From the IMG/VR virus record IMGVR_UViG_2541047812_000004, positions 1 to 37,579 of that record: 37,579 nucleotides of DNA. The stretch is one strand, 5' to 3'. Shown one piece after another: positions 1,242 through 11,389 of this stretch. Position 1 is the first letter of the stretch. Each line of letters opens with the position of its first letter. Made by a program: the position numbers and the translations under genes. The notes beneath the pieces were generated by a model. The model was not told where the DNA came from, searched no databases, and saw nothing but the letters and a program-made list of their open reading frames with translations. This DNA is from a virus (taxonomy: Duplodnaviria; Heunggongvirae; Uroviricota; Caudoviricetes).

Positions 1242-1433
1242 TTATCGTGAGTTTTTAGTACAGATTTTTTTGGATTTACTAATAGTTCCATCATTGCAAA
1301 CGAATTTGCCATCTGAGGTACAGTGAGAAACACCTCCCTTTTTCCCTGAGCAGGGATAATTTCTAGCATAGGTAGTTAGTGGGTTTAATAACAAAGAACA
1401 TGACAAAACCACAAAAAATACCTTACCAAGCAT
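1242..1433 (-). CDS. Small secreted cysteine-rich peptide (63 aa), putative moron/lysogenic-conversion gene
   Basis: ATG at 1433 preceded by strong RBS GGGAGGA (complement of 1438-1444). N-terminal hydrophobic signal-like segment ([23 protein letters not shown]), then Lys-rich region with 4 Cys. AT-rich, 15 bp downstream of the repressor gene on the same strand. Confidence 0.55.
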
Positions 1434-2367: not shown

Positions 2368-2431
2368 TAGACGTCTATTTTCGCAATAAGACGCTGAGTT
2401 CGATTTTGCGATAAGTTCGGAGTTGAAAACC

Positions 2432-2941
2432 ATGTTTGATTACCAAGTTTCCAAACATCCACATTTTGATGAAGCCTGTCGTGCATTCGCACTGCGCCAC
2501 AATCTGGTGCAACTGGCAGAACGTGCGGGCATGAATGTGCAGATTCTGCGGAACAAGCTGAACCCAGCTCAACCTCATTTATTAACCGCACCAGAAATCT
2601 GGCTGCTTACCGATCTGACTGAAGATTCAACGTTGGTAGATGGTTTTCTGGCACAGATTCATTGTCTGCCATGTGTACCGATTAATGAGGTAGCAAAAGA
2701 GAAACTGCCACATTACGTCATGAGTGCAACCGCAGAGATCGGGCGTGTTGCTGCAGGTGCGGTATCTGGCGATGTAAAAACCAGTGCAGGTCGTCGTGAT
2801 GCTATCAGCAGCATTAACTCTGTAACACGACTGATGGCGCTGGCGGCTGTTTCATTGCAGGCCCGTTTACAGGCTAATCCTGCGATGGCGAGTGCAGTTG
2901 ATACCGTGACTGGCCTCGGTGCTTCATTCGGTTTGCTGTGA
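2432..2941 (+). CDS. cII: CII-like transcriptional activator (phage 186 CII family)
   Basis: Translation [23 protein letters not shown]... closely resembles recalled 186 CII. ATG at 2432 with GGAG about 10 nt upstream; the ORF-track start at 2423 is a TTG. Confidence 0.8.
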
Positions 2942-4531: not shown

Positions 4532-5385
4532 GCACCATCCTGAAATGGGCGGGTAATAAAACCACCATTATGTCCGAACTGAAAAAATACCTTCCTGCTG
4601 GCACGCGACTGGTTGAACCTTTCGCGGGTTCTTGTGCTGTGATGATGGAGACGGATTACCCCAGCTATCTGGTTGCGGATATTAATCCTGATTTAATCAA
4701 CCTCTATAAAAAGGTTGCTGCTGATTGTGAGGCGTTTATATCTCGTGCCAGAGCTTTATTTGAGGAAGCAAACAGAGAGGTGGCTTATTACAACATAAGG
4801 CAGGAGTTTAATTACTCCACTGAAATTACTGATTTCATGAAAGCGGTATATTTTCTGTATCTCAATCGTCATGGTTACCGTGGGCTATGTCGCTATAACA
4901 AGAGCGGGTATTTCAACATTCCCTACGGTAATTATAAAAATCCGTATTTCCCTGAAAAAGAAATTCGCGCATTTGCAGAGAAAGCCCAGCGGGCAACGTT
5001 TATCTGCGCCAGCTTTGATGAAACGCTGGCGATGTTGAAGGCGGGGGATGTGGTGTATTGCGATCCGCCTTATGACGGTACGTTTTCCGGCTATCACACT
5101 GATGGCTTCACTGAAGATGACCAGTATCACCTGGCATCCGTTCTTGAACATCGATCATCTGAAGGTCATCCGGTCATTGTTTCTAACAGTGACACACCCC
5201 TGATCCGTTCGCTGTATCGCAATTTTACTCACCACTACATCAAGGCAAAACGCAGCATCGGCGTGGCAGCTGGTGAGAGTAAATCTGCAACAGAAATCAT
5301 CGCTGTTTCCGGGCCGCGCTGCTGGGTAGGATTTGATCCTTCGCGTGGCGTGGATTGTTCCGTCGTGTACGGAGTGCGTGCATGA
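4528..5385 (+). CDS. dam: DNA adenine methyltransferase (Dam-like, N6-adenine MTase)
   Basis: Motifs [16 protein letters not shown] and catalytic DPPY ([12 protein letters not shown]). ATG at 4528 overlaps upstream stop. Confidence 0.85.
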
Positions 5386-7796
5386 GCCATGCTGATATGA
5401 ACAACTGCAGCGGCTTTAACGAGGTCGCCGCAGCATTCTCATGGAACAGCCCGAAAAAGGCCATTAACCCTTATCTGGACCCGGCGGAAGTTGCGCCGGT
5501 TTCTGCGCTTTCAAACCTGATCACTCTGTACGCTGCCGATAACGAGCAGGAACAACTGCGCCGCGAGGCACTGAGTGATCAGGTCTGGGAGCGTTATTTC
5601 TTTAATGAATCCCGTGATCCTGTCCAACGCGAAATGGAGCAGGATAAGCTAATTAGCCGGGCAAAGCTGGCGCATGAGCAGCAGCGTTTTAATCCAGACA
5701 TGGCCATTCTGGCGGACGTCAACGCCCAGCCTTCCCATATCAGCAAGCCGCTGATGCAACGTATTAAATACTTCAGCAGCCTGGGCAGGCCAAAGGCTTA
5801 TTCCCGCTATTTGCGTGAGACGATTAAGCCATGCTTGGAACGACTGGAGCATGTACGCGACAGTCAGCTATCCACTTCTTTTCGCTTTATGGCAAGCCAT
5901 GAAGGGCTGGACGGCCTGCTGATCCTGCCTGAAATGAGTCAGGATCAGGTGAAACGCCTGTCCACCTTGGTAGCTGCGCATATGAGCATGTGCCTTGATA
6001 CAGCTTGTGGCGATTTGTATGCCACCGATGATGTTACGCCAGAAGAAATCCGCAAGACATGGGAAAAGGTGGCAGCGGAAACCCTGCGTCTGGATGTTAT
6101 CCCGCCTGCGTTTGAGCAACTCCGTCGGAAAAGAAACCGCCGTAAACCCGTGCCTTATGAACTCATTCCGGGTTCGCTGGCGCGTATGTTATGCGCCGAC
6201 TGGTGGTATCGGAAATTATGGAAGATGCGTTGCGAATGGCGGGAAGAGCAGTTGCGTGCTGTTTGCCTGGTCAGCAAAAAAGCATCTCCCTATGTCAGCT
6301 ATGAAGCCGTGATGCATAAACGTGAGCAGCGCCGTAAGTCGCTGGAGTTTTTCCGTTCTCATGAACTGGTGAACGAAGACGGCGACACGCTGGATATGGA
6401 AGACGTGGTAAACGCCAGCAGCAGCAACCCTGCGCATCGCCGCAATGAGATGATGGCCTGTGTTAAAGGTCTGGAGCTTATCGCGGAAATGCGCGGTGAC
6501 TGCGCCGTTTTCTACACCATCACCTGTCCGTCACGTTTCCATTCCACGCTAAATAACGGCAGGCCCAACCCGACCTGGACAAATGCGACGGTAAGACAAA
6601 GCAGTGATTATCTGGTCGGTATGTTTGCTGCATTTCGTAAGGCGATGCACAAAGCCGGATTACGCTGGTATGGCGTGCGGGTGGCTGAGCCGCATCATGA
6701 CGGTACAGTTCACTGGCACCTGTTGTGTTTTATGCGCAAAAAAGATCGCCGCGCCATTACTGCTTTGTTGCGTAAGTTTGCCATTCGTGAAGACCGCGAG
6801 GAGCTGGGTAATAACACGGAACCACGCTTTAAGTCTGAGCTGATAAACCCGCGCAAAGGTACGCCAACAAGCTACATCGCGAAATACATCAGTAAGAACA
6901 TTGACGGGCGTGGTCTGGCTGGCGAGATCAGCAAGGAAACGGGTAAATCCCTGCGTGATAACGCCGAATACGTTAATGCCTGGGCGTCTCTGCATCGTGT
7001 TCAGCAATTCCGCTTCTTTGGCATTCCGGGGCGTCAGGCTTACCGTGAACTGCGATTGCTGGCTGGTCAGGCGGCAAGGCAACAGGGGGACAAAAAAGCA
7101 GGTGCGCCGGTACTGGATAACCCGCGCCTTGATGCCATCCTGGCTGCCGCTGATGCTGGCTGTTTTGCCACCTACATCATGAAGCAGGGCGGCGTACTGG
7201 TTCCCCGCAAATATCACCTCATCAGAACCGCTTATGAAATCAACGAAGAGCCGACCGCCTATGGCGATCACGGTATTCGTATTTATGGCATCTGGTCACC
7301 CATTGCAGAGGGCAAGATCTGCACTCATGCGGTGAAGTGGAAAATGGTTCGTAAGGCCGTTGACATTCAGGAGGCGGCAGCCGACCAGGGCGCTTGCGCC
7401 CCTTGGACTCGTGGCAATAACTGTCCCCTTGCTGAAAATTTGAACCAACAGGAGAAAGATAAATCAGCTGATGGGGACACCAGAACGGACATTACCCGCA
7501 TGGATGACAAGGAGTTGCACGATTACCTGCACAGTATGAGCAAAAAAGAGCGCCGGGAACTGGCTGCAAGGTTACGCCTGGTGAAACCGAAACGGCGTAA
7601 AGACTACAAACAGCGAATTACAGATCATCAGCGACAGCAGCTCGTTTATGAGCTGAAGTCCAGAGGATTTGATGGCAGCGAGAAAGAGGTCGATTTACTC
7701 CTTCGCGGCGGCAGTATTCCGTCAGGAGCAGGCCTGCGTATCTTCTATCGGAACCAGCGTCTGCAGGAGGATGATAAATGGCGGAACCTGTATTAA
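5382..7796 (+). CDS. A: Replication initiation protein A (rolling-circle HUH endonuclease, P2 gpA-like)
   Basis: HUH-type motif ([10 protein letters not shown]) and active-site tyrosine region ([13 protein letters not shown]). ATG at 5382 overlaps dam stop (ATGA). Confidence 0.85.
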
Positions 7797-7890
7797 TTAC
7801 GCTGGTTAACAATTCGTGCTCTTAATAATACCAGGCATATCAGGCTGATGAGCGTAAAAAAACGTTTTACATCAGTAAGATTATTATATA

Positions 7891-7906
7891 CTGTAAATAT
7901 AAACAG
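7891..7906 (+). promoter_or_regulatory. LexA (SOS) box CTGT-N8-ACAG
   Basis: Sequence ctgtaaatataaacag matches the CTGT-N8-ACAG consensus with AT-rich spacer, 44 bp upstream of the ATG at 7950. Confidence 0.65.
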
Positions 7907-7949
7907 TGGTTATGTGTACAGTATTGCTTGTGGTGTCATAGGAGGAAAA

Positions 7950-8138
7950 ATGCAGGACTATTTTTTGGAGTCTTTGAAGCTCCAGCGCATTGATTTTTTT
8001 CTTAAGCTTGTAGCGGCTAGTGAGTGTAGTGATGAAGAGAAGGGGCTGGCCCTGCAGTGGGTTTCTGAACTGACAGATGAACTCATGGCAAAAATCAGAA
8101 CCCACGAATACAACCGCTCAATGGATGTCATCAGTTGA
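7950..8138 (+). CDS. Small SOS-regulated protein, possible Tum-type antirepressor module
   Basis: ATG at 7950 with GGAGG RBS (7941-7945); directly downstream of the LexA box. Antirepressor function is inferred from position only. Confidence 0.45.
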   Translation: MQDYFLESLKLQRIDFFLKLVAASECSDEEKGLALQWVSELTDELMAKIRTHEYNRSMDVIS

Positions 8139-8148
8139 GGTGACTTTT

Positions 8149-8382
8149 ATGCGCATTGAAATAATGATCGATAAAGAGCAGAAGATTAGCCAGTCTACCC
8201 TGGACGCCCTTGAATCCGAGCTTTACCGCAATCTGCGCCCCCTGTATCCCAAAACGGTAATTCGTATCCGTAAAGGTAGCTCTAACGGTGTGGAACTGAC
8301 CGGACTGCAACTGGATGAAGAAAGAAAACAAGTGATGAAAATTATGCAGAAGGTGTGGGAAGACGACAGCTGGCTGCATTAA
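8149..8382 (+). CDS. DinI-family protein
   Basis: MRIEIMIDKEQ...LDALESEL...KVWEDDSWLH resembles E. coli DinI (MRIEVTIAK...ALAGEL...ETWESADDWF). ATG at 8149 with GAGG RBS. Confidence 0.75.
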   Translation: MRIEIMIDKEQKISQSTLDALESELYRNLRPLYPKTVIRIRKGSSNGVELTGLQLDEERKQVMKIMQKVWEDDSWLH

Positions 8383-8517
8383 GAAACGTTGCTGGCGTCT
8401 GAACTTGTTTCTGGCGTCAGCAAGGTTGAACAACGAGCCCTTGCGAGGCGTTAGCTCTGTAGTGCATGTCTATGCCGCATGAGATCGCATGATCGTTTGA
8501 GGATCGTTTTTGCTAAG

Positions 8518-8542
8518 GCCCGCCAGAACTGGCGGGCTTTTG
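8518..8542 (+). terminator. Rho-independent terminator (GC hairpin plus T-tract)
   Basis: gcccgccag-aa-ctggcgggc followed by ttttg. Confidence 0.6.
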
Positions 8543-8684
8543 CGTAGATCATGCAGGTGCATGAAAACCACTACATAAAGCGGGCAGGCGTGGCGGGGAT
8601 ACGAGCGCGCGCAAGTGGCTGAGTGGGGGGAAGGCAAAACAAGCACCTGCAAGATGATGGCTGAATGGAAAAGTTTGTTGAAAA

Positions 8685-10763
8685 ATGCTAATTTTAGAAA
8701 CAACATATAAGTTTTTATCCACCTCGTTAAGGCTTTCTATGAGCAGTTTCTTTTATATCCAGCCTGATTTAAAAAATGATACAAATGCTGATTTTTTGAA
8801 CTCTGTTGAAGAGTATGCAAATACTCATCAAATGCAGATTTATGCAATAATGAATCCCTTAGGGGAAAATAAATATAAATATAATAGAGACGATGTTCTT
8901 ATTATATTAAGCCCAGGATACCAATTAGCGTTCGTTGCTTTTAGTGATGATGTTGATGGTATACAAAATTTTATAGAGGATTTTATAGAGGATTTAGGTT
9001 CCTTATCAGATAAATACAATTATAAAGATACAATTGGTAGGCCTCGAGCGTGGAAAGATAAACTTGTTACTGAGTGCTCATACGCTGATTTTAGTTTCGG
9101 TAATCTTGATAAGTTTTTTGATGAAATTAAAATTATTGATGGTGTTCTGGCTAAAAAGAGTGAGTTAATTATCTCTCTCTTAACAGGAAGTATCAATAAT
9201 ATTGATAAAGTTAAAGGCAATGTGCCAGATAATATACTTGACAAGGTTAAGCAAAAGATAATTTTGTTTGACGGAGATCAGACAAGGTTTGTATACCAAA
9301 AATTTGATAAGAAAAAAGTTGTTATTCAAGGATTATCAGGTACTGGTAAGACTGAACTATTGCTTCATAAGTTAAAGGAAATATATTTGGATAAGGAGAA
9401 TTTAAATAGTAAAATAATGTTTACGTGCCATAATAAAATATTGGCAGACAATATGAGAAAGAGAATTCCAGAGTTTTTCAACTTTATGAAGGTCGAGCAG
9501 CAGATTAGCTGGAATGAAAGACTTTGGTGTGTTAATGCATGGGGTTCTCAATATGACGGTAACTCTGGCGCATATAGATATATATGTGAATATTATGGAT
9601 TAAGTTTCTATCGTTTTAGCTATGTGATGACTTTCGATAAAGTATGTAGAATTGCGTTGGATGAACTAAAAAAGTTGCCAAGCAATGAATTTAAGCATTG
9701 CTTTGACTTTATGTTAATAGATGAAAGTCAGGATTTCCCATCAAGCTTCATTGAGCTTTGCGAGCTGGTAACTCGTGATACTATTTATGTTGCTGGTGAT
9801 ATATTTCAAAGTATATTTGATACTAATATCTCTAATGAGATACAGCCAGACTTTCTTCTAAGTAAATGCTACCGAACAGATCCAAGGACATTGATGTTTG
9901 CTCATGGTTTAGGTATGGGGCTATTTGAAGAAGAACCATTAACTTGGTTAATGAATAATGAATGGGAAGCCTGCGGTTATATAGTTGATGAATCGGTAAA
10001 AGGTAAGTTAAGATTAAAGAGAGAGCCACTAAGAAGATTTGAAGATGTAACGGATGCAAAAATACATAGTGTGGAATTAATTAATTCCACATATGAAACT
10101 GAAGAAGAGAATATTTTGGGTATACTCCGTAAAATTAAGGAGGAGAATCCTACTGTTTTGGCTGATGATATTGGTATCATCTTTATTGATCAGGCTAAGA
10201 CTATATTTAAAATCGCAGACAGACTTGAATTGAGCGTGCCTAGATTATTAGGATGGAAGGTTAATAAGGCATATGAAACAAAAGAAAAAATTAAAGACAC
10301 GTTATTCATAAGTAATAAAAACCATGTAAAAGGGTTGGAGTTTCCTTTTGTTATCTGTGTTACTCGTGATATTATCAAGAGCCATTCTTATCGAAATTCA
10401 CTATATATGATGTTAACTCGTTCCTTTATTAAGTCATATTTGCTTCTGGGAGATGGGAATAAAGACTTACAGAATGAGATAGAAAAGGGGTTAGATGCTA
10501 TTAATGAGCATGGTTATATGGATATTAACGTTCCACCGAGAGAAGTCATTTCAAAAATAAGAACAACAATCAAATATGATGAGAAAAATATATCTCATTA
10601 TGATTTGGTTACAAAGGTCTTCGATGACTTACAGATTGAGCCGATATTTCGTACATCCCTGTATAATACAGTAAAAACAATCATGCCTGATTCTTTTGAT
10701 GTCGATAAAATTACTACTCTTGTTCGGTTCAACTATGAAATAATGCTTCAGGAGTCGAAGTGA
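8685..10763 (+). CDS. SF1 (UvrD/Rep-like) helicase-family P-loop NTPase with unknown ~200-aa N-terminal domain; candidate defence protein
   Basis: Helicase motifs read from translation: I GLSGTGKT, II FMLIDESQDF, III VAGDIFQSIF, IV CYRTDPRTL, VI VKGLEFPFVIC. AT-rich. Alternative start ATG 8739 (MSSFFY..., RBS TAAGG) may be the true start. Confidence 0.75.
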   Translation: MLILETTYKFLSTSLRLSMSSFFYIQPDLKNDTNADFLNSVEEYANTHQMQIYAIMNPLGENKYKYNRDDVLIILSPGYQLAFVAFSDDVDGIQNFIEDFIEDLGSLSDKYNYKDTIGRPRAWKDKLVTECSYADFSFGNLDKFFDEIKIIDGVLAKKSELIISLLTGSINNIDKVKGNVPDNILDKVKQKIILFDGDQTRFVYQKFDKKKVVIQGLSGTGKTELLLHKLKEIYLDKENLNSKIMFTCHNKILADNMRKRIPEFFNFMKVEQQISWNERLWCVNAWGSQYDGNSGAYRYICEYYGLSFYRFSYVMTFDKVCRIALDELKKLPSNEFKHCFDFMLIDESQDFPSSFIELCELVTRDTIYVAGDIFQSIFDTNISNEIQPDFLLSKCYRTDPRTLMFAHGLGMGLFEEEPLTWLMNNEWEACGYIVDESVKGKLRLKREPLRRFEDVTDAKIHSVELINSTYETEEENILGILRKIKEENPTVLADDIGIIFIDQAKTIFKIADRLELSVPRLLGWKVNKAYETKEKIKDTLFISNKNHVKGLEFPFVICVTRDIIKSHSYRNSLYMMLTRSFIKSYLLLGDGNKDLQNEIEKGLDAINEHGYMDINVPPREVISKIRTTIKYDEKNISHYDLVTKVFDDLQIEPIFRTSLYNTVKTIMPDSFDVDKITTLVRFNYEIMLQESK

Positions 10764-11389
10764 ATAAAGAGTATTATTTTAGTCTGGAGCAGGCTCAGTG
10801 TGACTGGGCCTTTAAGCCAATACGAACAAAGAAAGATGTTATTGAAATATTGATGAGATTAATCAAACTAATTTCTGTTTATACAGAACCATGCGAACAG
10901 AATGTGGTTGGGAGAGTGAAACTTCATATATCAAAGATGAGTCGAGTTTTCTTCTTTAGTGAAAATAAATATTATTCTCTTGCATTTCCTTTTTTTCTTG
11001 ATGAAATTAATGGTCAGATTTTATTTAGTAGTCCAGAAATGGAGTGTATAGATAGTTTTGTAACATCAAAAGTCATTTCTTTTATTAATGACTCCTCTTA
11101 TTTGAATAGTTCTTCTTGGGCCTTTTTTGAACCATTGTTAAATATTGAAGAACATCAAGGTATTCCCGGGTTTTGGCCTTTTCTTAGAATGTTGTTAACT
11201 TATGAGGATGGTTATATTAGATATGATGTCGATGAAGAAAGGGCTAATGGAAATCGTCATCCATTATATCATTTCGACGTCTTTTATTCTAATCCGCCAA
11301 CGTTTAAAATTGGTTTGAATGCACATTATACAAATGATGAAATGATTGATTTTCTTGATAGGGAAACTGATTGTCGTTATTTGAAATGA
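10760..11389 (+). CDS. Hypothetical protein (209 aa), partner of the helicase-like gene
   Basis: GTG start at 10760 overlaps upstream stop (GTGA) with AGGAG 5 nt upstream; translational coupling. AT-rich; no recognisable motif. Confidence 0.6.
   Translation: MNKEYYFSLEQAQCDWAFKPIRTKKDVIEILMRLIKLISVYTEPCEQNVVGRVKLHISKMSRVFFFSENKYYSLAFPFFLDEINGQILFSSPEMECIDSFVTSKVISFINDSSYLNSSSWAFFEPLLNIEEHQGIPGFWPFLRMLLTYEDGYIRYDVDEERANGNRHPLYHFDVFYSNPPTFKIGLNAHYTNDEMIDFLDRETDCRYLK

Follow-up and report, generated by a model that had tools for sequence, protein, structure and literature searches.

The subject of this analysis is a viral sequence of 37,579 nt (IMG/VR record IMGVR_UViG_2541047812_000004, analysed at its full length and hereafter termed the window), a P2-family prophage of the 186/Fels-2 type in which candidate LexA boxes and two small genes, a 62-aa open reading frame (ORF) and a DinI-like gene, follow replication gene A. 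With a probability of roughly 0.9, these elements constitute the SOS-induction operon of a Fels-2-like (186-type) prophage, in which an antirepressor and a DinI-like protein are expressed under the control of LexA. The initial annotation, made from the sequence alone, had proposed a canonical SOS box in front of two small genes, in the position occupied by the LexA-controlled tum gene in phage 186; the box (CTGTAAATATAAACAG) lies at 7891–7906, the ORFs at 7950–8138 and 8149–8382, and p95/tum of 186 is likewise located after gene A. The operator, described there as a single site, requires amendment: LexA box 1 is present as noted, but a second box at 7906–7921 had been overlooked.

The split tum module as such is already known and of textbook type for this phage group, with genetic proof in a near-identical prophage, and the addition made here is a modest one, namely a double LexA operator of colicin type whose distribution is clade-specific. 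The module accounts for lytic induction coupled to DNA damage without repressor cleavage in a very common class of enterobacterial prophages, present in E. coli, Salmonella, Klebsiella, Citrobacter and Enterobacter, and is relevant to antibiotic-triggered phage release and the spread of phage cargo genes.

In the lysogen, LexA would occupy the double overlapping operator at 7891–7921, covering the −10/start region and keeping the two small genes silent; upon DNA damage, active RecA would lead to LexA self-cleavage and the promoter would open. The first product, a protein of 62 aa that is predicted to form two helices and shares homology with the N-terminal part of 186 Tum, would bind or sequester the CI repressor (1449–2105), the lytic promoter would no longer be held and the prophage would enter lytic growth without repressor cleavage, with the second, DinI-like product probably modulating RecA filament activity and tuning the SOS signal. 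Direct binding of the 62-aa protein to CI is proposed by analogy with 186 Tum and PSP3 TumA, and occupation of both boxes by two LexA dimers by analogy with colicin operators; the requirement for LexA cleavage and for the tum ORF has been shown by others in the 98%-identical phage DuoHS (PMC12055606).

Genetics and homology of the two cistrons

Region 7797–8560 shares 97.8% DNA identity with Fels-2 and matches many P2-like phages of Klebsiella and Salmonella; an alignment of the window, DuoHS and Fels-2 has a mean column identity of 98%, and the module is found in 1144 of 5426 complete E. coli genomes (approximately a fifth). Essentially the same element is carried by Fels-2 (STM2728/STM2726.1), DuoHS (tum and a DinI-like gene) and SopEPhi (orf10/orf11), all of which share the double box, ribosome-binding sites and gene order, with DNA identities of 97–98% for Fels-2 and DuoHS. 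Unlike the window, Fels-2 and DuoHS have three base changes in the spacer of box 2 and an extra gene after the DinI gene, the Fels-2 copy of which (732 bp) has the same length as 186 orf97.

The Phollow paper of 2025 (PMC12055606) reports that DuoHS, the prophage of E. coli HS, is not inducible by mitomycin C in strains that are Delta-tum or carry lexA(Ind-), and its supplement gives tum as ECHS_RS04495, a gene of 189 bp flanked by those for the replication endonuclease and the DinI-like protein. The deletion-junction primers of that study correspond to window positions 7930–7952 (one mismatch) and 8136–8158 (no mismatch), showing that what was deleted in DuoHS was precisely the homologue of the 62-aa ORF, the DinI gene being retained together with its ribosome-binding site. 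The CI protein of the window matches 186 CI (PDB 2FJR, E 1.9e-31), and its Pfam matches comprise two CI domains alone, with no Peptidase_S24 or other peptidase domain; a cognate-type repressor without a self-cleavage domain, as in the 186 Tum-type module, combined with the DuoHS genetics, upholds the proposed route to SOS induction that bypasses repressor autocleavage.

The record of 186 describes a LexA-controlled promoter, p95, followed by tum (146 aa) after gene A, with the remark 'expression repressed by LexA; inhibits CI DNA binding', and lists three internal-start tum products, including a 77-aa GTG-initiated DinI-only form; truncated Tum is stated to be one that 'modulates SOS induction', a modulator and not an inducer. 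Tum binds CI and prevents operator binding, according to the portion of Lemire et al. (PMC3121763) that cites Shearwin 1998, and 186 Tum is the one protein for which such biochemistry is reported. The DinI-like ORF of the window aligns with Tum residues 71–145 (41% identity, E 3e-24), and the alignment of both ORFs with Tum that had been suggested at the outset succeeded for the 62-aa ORF at the level of profiles: a profile built from an 18-member alignment of diverse relatives matched Tum in hhalign with a probability of 94.9% (E 4.4e-8), residues 4–43 pairing collinearly with residues 4–43. Cross-matches among phage protein families agree, with Tum residues 1–70 assigned collinearly to PHROG 698 (5.9e-6), the family of the 62-aa ORF (E 3.6e-38); the 62-aa ORF matching PHROG 1993, the family of PSP3 TumA (2.2e-3); and both the 62-aa ORF and Tum 1–70 matching PHROG 8554. 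The motif common to the 62-aa family and Tum is roughly E-x-[IV]-x-[LI]-[QE]-R-[IV]-[DE]-h-h-x-[KR]-L-x-A-x-x-x-C-x-x-x-[DE]-[KR]-x-[LI]-A-[LI]-x-h-[ILV]-[AS]-E-[LI]. From these profile matches and the 41% identity of the DinI parts it follows that the two cistrons are homologous to the two halves of Tum; the 62-aa protein is, as judged by profile comparison, a remote homologue of the first ~43 residues.

The fused form of 186, with antirepressor and DinI part in one polypeptide, is not what the window contains: a TGA (8136–8138) closes the first gene and is followed by a new ribosome-binding site (GAGGTGA, 8137–8143) and an ATG at 8149, precisely the division into two cistrons that had been described. 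The module is accordingly of the split TumA/TumB type known from PSP3 and Fels-2. That the tum genes of these two phages are split by a stop codon, and that the upstream half in PSP3 is the antirepressor and the downstream half a DinI homologue, is related in the section of Lemire et al. 2011 (PMC3121763) that cites Bunny et al. 2002; the PSP3 record correspondingly describes tumA as 'similar to 5' end 186 tum; UV induction of prophage' and tumB as 'similar to dinI and 3' end of 186 tum', and the Fels-2 record refers to PSP3 TumB. Fusion of the small ORF to DinI was sought among 66 representative relatives, judged by hit length and match position throughout and by sequence for five of the six longest hits, and was rejected: in none of the 66 did the small-ORF domain stand at the N-terminus of a Tum-length protein, and in the five long hits it lies at the C-terminal end, or close to it, of ORFs that look mis-called or chimeric.

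Compared with p95-tum-orf97 of 186, the window shares the placement after gene A and just before cos, a LexA site overlapping the −10 region, a homologous N-terminal domain, the DinI-like C-terminal part, a 186-type CI and a separate 77-aa DinI-only product, which in 186 arises from the internal GTG and makes the difference between the two systems smaller than it first looks. Unlike the window, 186 encodes Tum as one polypeptide, has a single LexA box, carries orf97 downstream and has a CI of 33% identity. PSP3 tumA/tumB is similar in having a small antirepressor gene and then a DinI homologue after gene A, behind a LexA box, and unlike in that TumA falls into PHROG 1993 (698 for the window), the LexA box is single and CI is longer. 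Gifsy-1/Gifsy-3 and Fels-1 possess LexA-repressed operons that pair a small antirepressor (GfoA, GftA, FsoA) with a dinI homologue and permit induction without repressor cleavage (PMC3121763), but there dinI comes first, reversing the gene order, and the repressors belong to the lambdoid family.

The 62-aa protein has 98% amino acid identity to Fels-2 STM2728 and E. coli HS ECHS_RS04495, and 88.7% to its SopEPhi counterpart. It has no Pfam, PADLOC or PDB profile match; an AF2 model predicts a two-helix hairpin (pLDDT 91.5), for which Foldseek returned nothing below E 0.4 among viral structures, and this helical-hairpin fold is too simple to inform. The mechanical ORF list gives a longer version of 96 aa from ATG 7848, a start that lies 5′ of the promoter and operator, and RefSeq has the 189-bp version in both E. 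coli HS and Fels-2. Many database entries for the protein are of 84–106 aa, with in-frame upstream starts called (P0005, P0007, P0008 and others); those starts, 5′ of the LexA operator, are probably mis-called. In thousands of genomes, this 'hypothetical protein' can be given the name TumA-type antirepressor.

Membership of the second gene in the DinI family, also part of the initial annotation, is confirmed by Pfam PF06183 (E 6.6e-23; 81.3 bits against a cutoff of 24.2; profile positions 1–63 of 63), E. coli DinI (PDB 1GHH; E 2.7e-6, residues 1–75) and PHROG 189, 'RecA filament binding protein DinI'; PADLOC contains no model for it. By analogy with E. coli DinI and with the 186 annotation of SOS modulation, the protein most likely modulates RecA filament activity. 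The gene appears to be a dispensable, optional accessory: in a survey by single-protein scan of genome contigs, covering 33 loci of different species (L017–L049; 31 with upstream DNA), DinI was found downstream of the small ORF in 19 loci and absent in 14, and the small ORF likewise occurs without a downstream DinI gene in phages ESSI-2, ESSI2_ev015, vB_YenM_06.16-2, vB_YenM_324 and ENT90. The two-gene SOS operon is probably ended by an intrinsic terminator (−25.1 kcal/mol, z −5.1, with 0 of 200 shuffles as stable) that is kept in Fels-2 3′ of STM2726.

The LexA operator and its distribution

Box 1, a perfect LexA core situated 59 nt 5′ of the start of the 62-aa ORF, aligns with the annotated LexA site of 186 p95 and is retained in every one of the 31 related loci whose upstream DNA was covered, with no more than one mismatch in the core. 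Its 20-mer (TACTGTAAATATAAACAGTG) agrees at 17 of 20 positions with the LexA consensus TACTGTATATATATACAGTA. A bare CTGT-N8-ACAG is not statistically unusual, with 0.46 expected per window and at least one in 38 of 100 shuffles; the extended TACTGT-N8-ACAGT at 7889–7907 is expected 0.02 times (2 of 100 shuffles), and the full double-box pattern at 7891–7922 0.00 times (none in shuffles).

The antirepressor gene is preceded by a candidate promoter that the candidate LexA operator overlaps, as in the 186 Tum-type module: a TTTACA hexamer, its role being assigned by analogy with the p95 annotation in 186, and a candidate −10 region that overlaps box 1, for which TACTGT with a 17-nt spacer is the form annotated for p95. 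SopEPhi, Klebsiella ST437-OXA245phi4.1 and Yersinia MLG42 retain TTTACA at an unchanged distance from the −10 region, with differing spacer sequence. The two LexA 16-mers (7891–7906 and 7906–7921) are offset by 15 nt, share one base and lie over or just 3′ of the −10 region; these features predict a double operator of the colicin type, with overlapping LexA boxes.

Likeness to colicin operators extends to the bases themselves. The 20-mer of box 2 (CAGTGGTTATGTGTACAGTA) recurs unchanged as the promoter-proximal box in plasmids for colicin N and colicin R, 22 contiguous bases (CAGTGGTTATGTGTACAGTATT) are identical to both, and the operators align base-for-base. A 51-nt operator query matched 834 plasmid records, mostly small and mobilizable, and in two plasmid examples the match lies directly 5′ of the colicin N and colicin R genes. 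Colicin operators (N, R, E1, K and others) share with the window the arrangement of two 16-mers with one common base, a strong distal box and a GTGG...ACAG proximal box; they are unlike it in their unrelated downstream genes and −35 region, and box 1 of colicins N and R has CCAG where the window has a perfect ACAG. Two LexA dimers are reported to bind colicin operators, which consequently show no detectable basal expression and fire in few cells (PMC2994835); Table 3 of that paper lists HI values for colicin N of 7.55 (distal) and 11.61 (proximal).

Among the 31 loci with upstream DNA, a second box at the +15 offset with perfect ACAG is present in 21, its spacer bases varying; since loci were classified by this ACAG, its four positions are in part conserved by construction, but the adjacent T and TAT positions, on which no selection was made, are conserved among the double-box loci as well. 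The double box occurs in Escherichia, Citrobacter, Kluyvera, Raoultella, Enterobacter, Serratia and Pantoea stewartii, with a better left half (GTGT) of the second box in L018, L032 and L034, and a single box in the remaining 10 loci, mostly Pantoea, Erwinia and Tatumella. Operator architecture follows clade among the 33 loci: Enterobacteriaceae loci (small ORF ~81–100% identical) almost all have a double box 52–67 nt before the start codon; in most Pantoea/Erwinia loci (71–78% identical) only one box is present, at −38 or −39; and the two Tatumella loci (79–81% identical) have theirs, also single, at about −95. Phages 186, PSP3, ESSI-2 and the Yersinia phages have one LexA box.

It is tentatively proposed, at a little under even odds, that the Fels-2-type tum promoter, unlike those of 186 and PSP3, is governed by a colicin-type double operator occupied by two LexA dimers, which would abolish basal expression, delay firing until late or strong SOS, and confer a higher induction threshold and less spontaneous induction than in single-box relatives; the 22-base identity could reflect cassette exchange between Col plasmids and P2-like phages, and not convergence. 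This small refinement could account for Fels-2-like and 186-like phages differing in spontaneous induction. No description of a double operator at a Fels-2-type tum promoter was found in the literature searched, the coverage of which did not extend to Bunny et al. 2002, and text searches for the operator string and for TumA/TumB yielded irrelevant papers only.

Alternative readings of the operator and the operon

Several observations weigh against the assignment of an SOS-induction operon, or against parts of it. Pairwise BLASTP produced no alignment of the 62-aa ORF with 186 Tum or with PSP3 TumA (nor of Tum with TumA), and the match of the 62-aa family profile to PSP3 TumA is weak (E 0.011). 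A sigma-70 consensus scan of 7700–8700 found no promoter, a miss explained by hexamer spacing outside 16–18 nt, the likely hexamers being separated by 15 nt, or by 17 nt with a weak −10. In box 2 the left half is poor (GTGG) and the box alone might not bind LexA. CI is only 86% identical to that of DuoHS, and the pairing of antirepressor and CI is assumed; the functional evidence was obtained in relatives, and for the prophage of the window itself the assignment is a reading of its sequence.

The alternative with most weight, although unlikely, concerns the operator: box 1 alone would work, box 2 being a passenger or part of the 5′ untranslated sequence, and repression would be single-site as at 186 p95. 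The two mismatches of GTGG to CTGT, the sufficiency of one box in 186, PSP3, ESSI-2 and the Yersinia phages, the absence of box 2 from 10 of 31 loci, and the freedom implied by three variable positions in its N8 spacer among the window, Fels-2 and DuoHS are all consistent with this view, yet colicin operators normally have a proximal box with a weak left half, although binding of two LexA dimers is reported for them, and the colicin N proximal box is listed with HI 11.61 (PMC2994835). The colicin N plasmid examined has the window 20-mer unchanged as its proximal box, and retention of the offset, the ACAG and the flanking T and TAT across 21 loci of several genera, while spacers vary, argues for a function of the second box. 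Very improbable is an exchange of roles in which the DinI-like protein is the induction effector and the 62-aa ORF, called 'levan regulatory protein' in some databases, a leader or unrelated regulator. The DinI part is alone in having a curated family, the 62-aa ORF lacking any Pfam, PADLOC or PDB match, and both parts share one polypeptide in 186, where whole-gene genetics cannot separate them; the in-frame DuoHS deletion, however, joined start to stop codon in the small ORF alone and abolished induction with DinI intact (PMC12055606), antirepressor activity in PSP3 is assigned to the upstream gene in the passage of PMC3121763 cited above, the small ORF persists without DinI in 14 of 33 loci and several phages, and the DinI-only product of 186 is annotated as a modulator. 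Scarcely credible, finally, is a chance LexA match in front of genes that are constitutive or lytic-phase accessories, with induction by another route: the expected frequency of the bare core and the negative promoter scan would allow it, but the rarity of the extended and double motifs, the retention of box 1 in 31 of 31 loci as the positional homologue of the p95 LexA site, the block to DuoHS induction by lexA(Ind-) (PMC12055606) and a CI with two 186-type domains as sole Pfam matches and no peptidase domain speak for SOS control of the operon.

Genome context and neighbouring sequences

Coordinates of the operon and of the prophage genes that bear on it are collected in Table 1.

Table 1. 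Features of the window discussed in the text
Feature	Position	Strand	Remarks
Integrase	1–1209	−	
186-type CI immunity repressor, presumed antirepressor target	1449–2105	−	Pfam Phage_CI_repr 3.3e-31, Phage_CI_C 8.8e-29
CII homologue	2423–2941		
Replication gene A	5355–7796		Phage_GPA, E 4.5e-128; directly 5′ of the module
−35-like hexamer TTTACA, candidate tum promoter (186 p95 equivalent)	7866–7871	+	Read from sequence
Candidate −10 region	7887–7894	+	TATACT 7887–7892 (15-nt spacer) or TACTGT 7889–7894 (17-nt spacer)
LexA box 1 (distal)	7891–7906	+	CTGTAAATATAAACAG; sole CTGT-N8-ACAG in the 37,579-nt window
LexA box 2 (proximal), predicted	7906–7921	+	GTGGTTATGTGTACAG; one base in common with box 1
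Shine-Dalgarno AGGAGG of the 62-aa ORF	7940–7945	+	Kept in Fels-2 and DuoHS
tumA-type antirepressor gene, 62 aa	7950–8138	+	ATG 7950, TGA 8136–8138; homologue of Fels-2 STM2728 and DuoHS tum ECHS_RS04495
Shine-Dalgarno GAGGTGA of the DinI-like ORF	8137–8143	+	Overlaps the tumA stop; identical in Fels-2 and DuoHS
tumB / DinI-like gene, 77 aa	8149–8382	+	ATG 8149, TAA 8380–8382
Intrinsic terminator	8517–8541	+	GGCCCGCCAG-loop-CTGGCGGGC, then UUUU

The true start of CI probably lies ~28 codons 3′ of the GTG at 2105, where the CI proteins of DuoHS and 186 begin. Differences from DuoHS CI are found mostly in the N-terminal DNA-binding part, the C-terminal ~90 residues being almost identical, a pattern that suggests an immunity specificity unlike that of DuoHS with a shared C-terminal domain. 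Between int and cI, a 63-aa ORF (1242–1433, minus strand) has a signal-peptide-like N-terminus; the same slot holds a 192-bp hypothetical gene in E. coli HS and a DUF2511 gene in PSP3.

Downstream of the DinI-like gene, 8383–8560 is without the gene found after the DinI part in 186 (orf97) and Fels-2 (STM2726) (L001 3645–4376, L002 7605–8336), while the sequences that flank orf97/STM2726 are still present in the window; the 186 record notes for orf97 that 'expression from plasmid blocks 186 infection'. A stable hairpin at 8385–8427 (−23.5 kcal/mol, z −3.3) is followed by GGTTGAACAACGAGCCC..GCGAGGCGTTAGC (region 8385–8460). Phage 186 has the same conserved block 3′ of orf97, at the aligned position, with a different inverted repeat (read by eye) before it, and neither the hairpin or repeat nor the conserved block is annotated in its record; both may belong to the packaging region.

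A cos-like sequence, GGCGTGGCGGGGATACGAG, is located at 8587–8605 with CATAAAGCGGGCA before it, in agreement with the right end of 186 (...CATAAAGTGGGCA) joined to 186 cos (GGCGTGGCGGGGAAAGCAT). The tum operon would therefore lie at the extreme right end of the packaged genome, between the end of gene A (7796) and the cos-like site, which is the location of the 186 Tum-type module. Between cos and the portal gene, 8685–11389 encodes a 692-aa UvrD-like helicase and a 209-aa protein, the latter with no Pfam match, at a G+C content of 31–34% compared with ~50% in flanking phage DNA. Its best PADLOC match is 'Helicase' PDLC03002 (2.9e-28), with weak matches to GajB and DRT-helicase; the segment looks like foreign cargo, possibly an anti-phage defence pair, and Fels-2 and DuoHS carry other genes at this spot.

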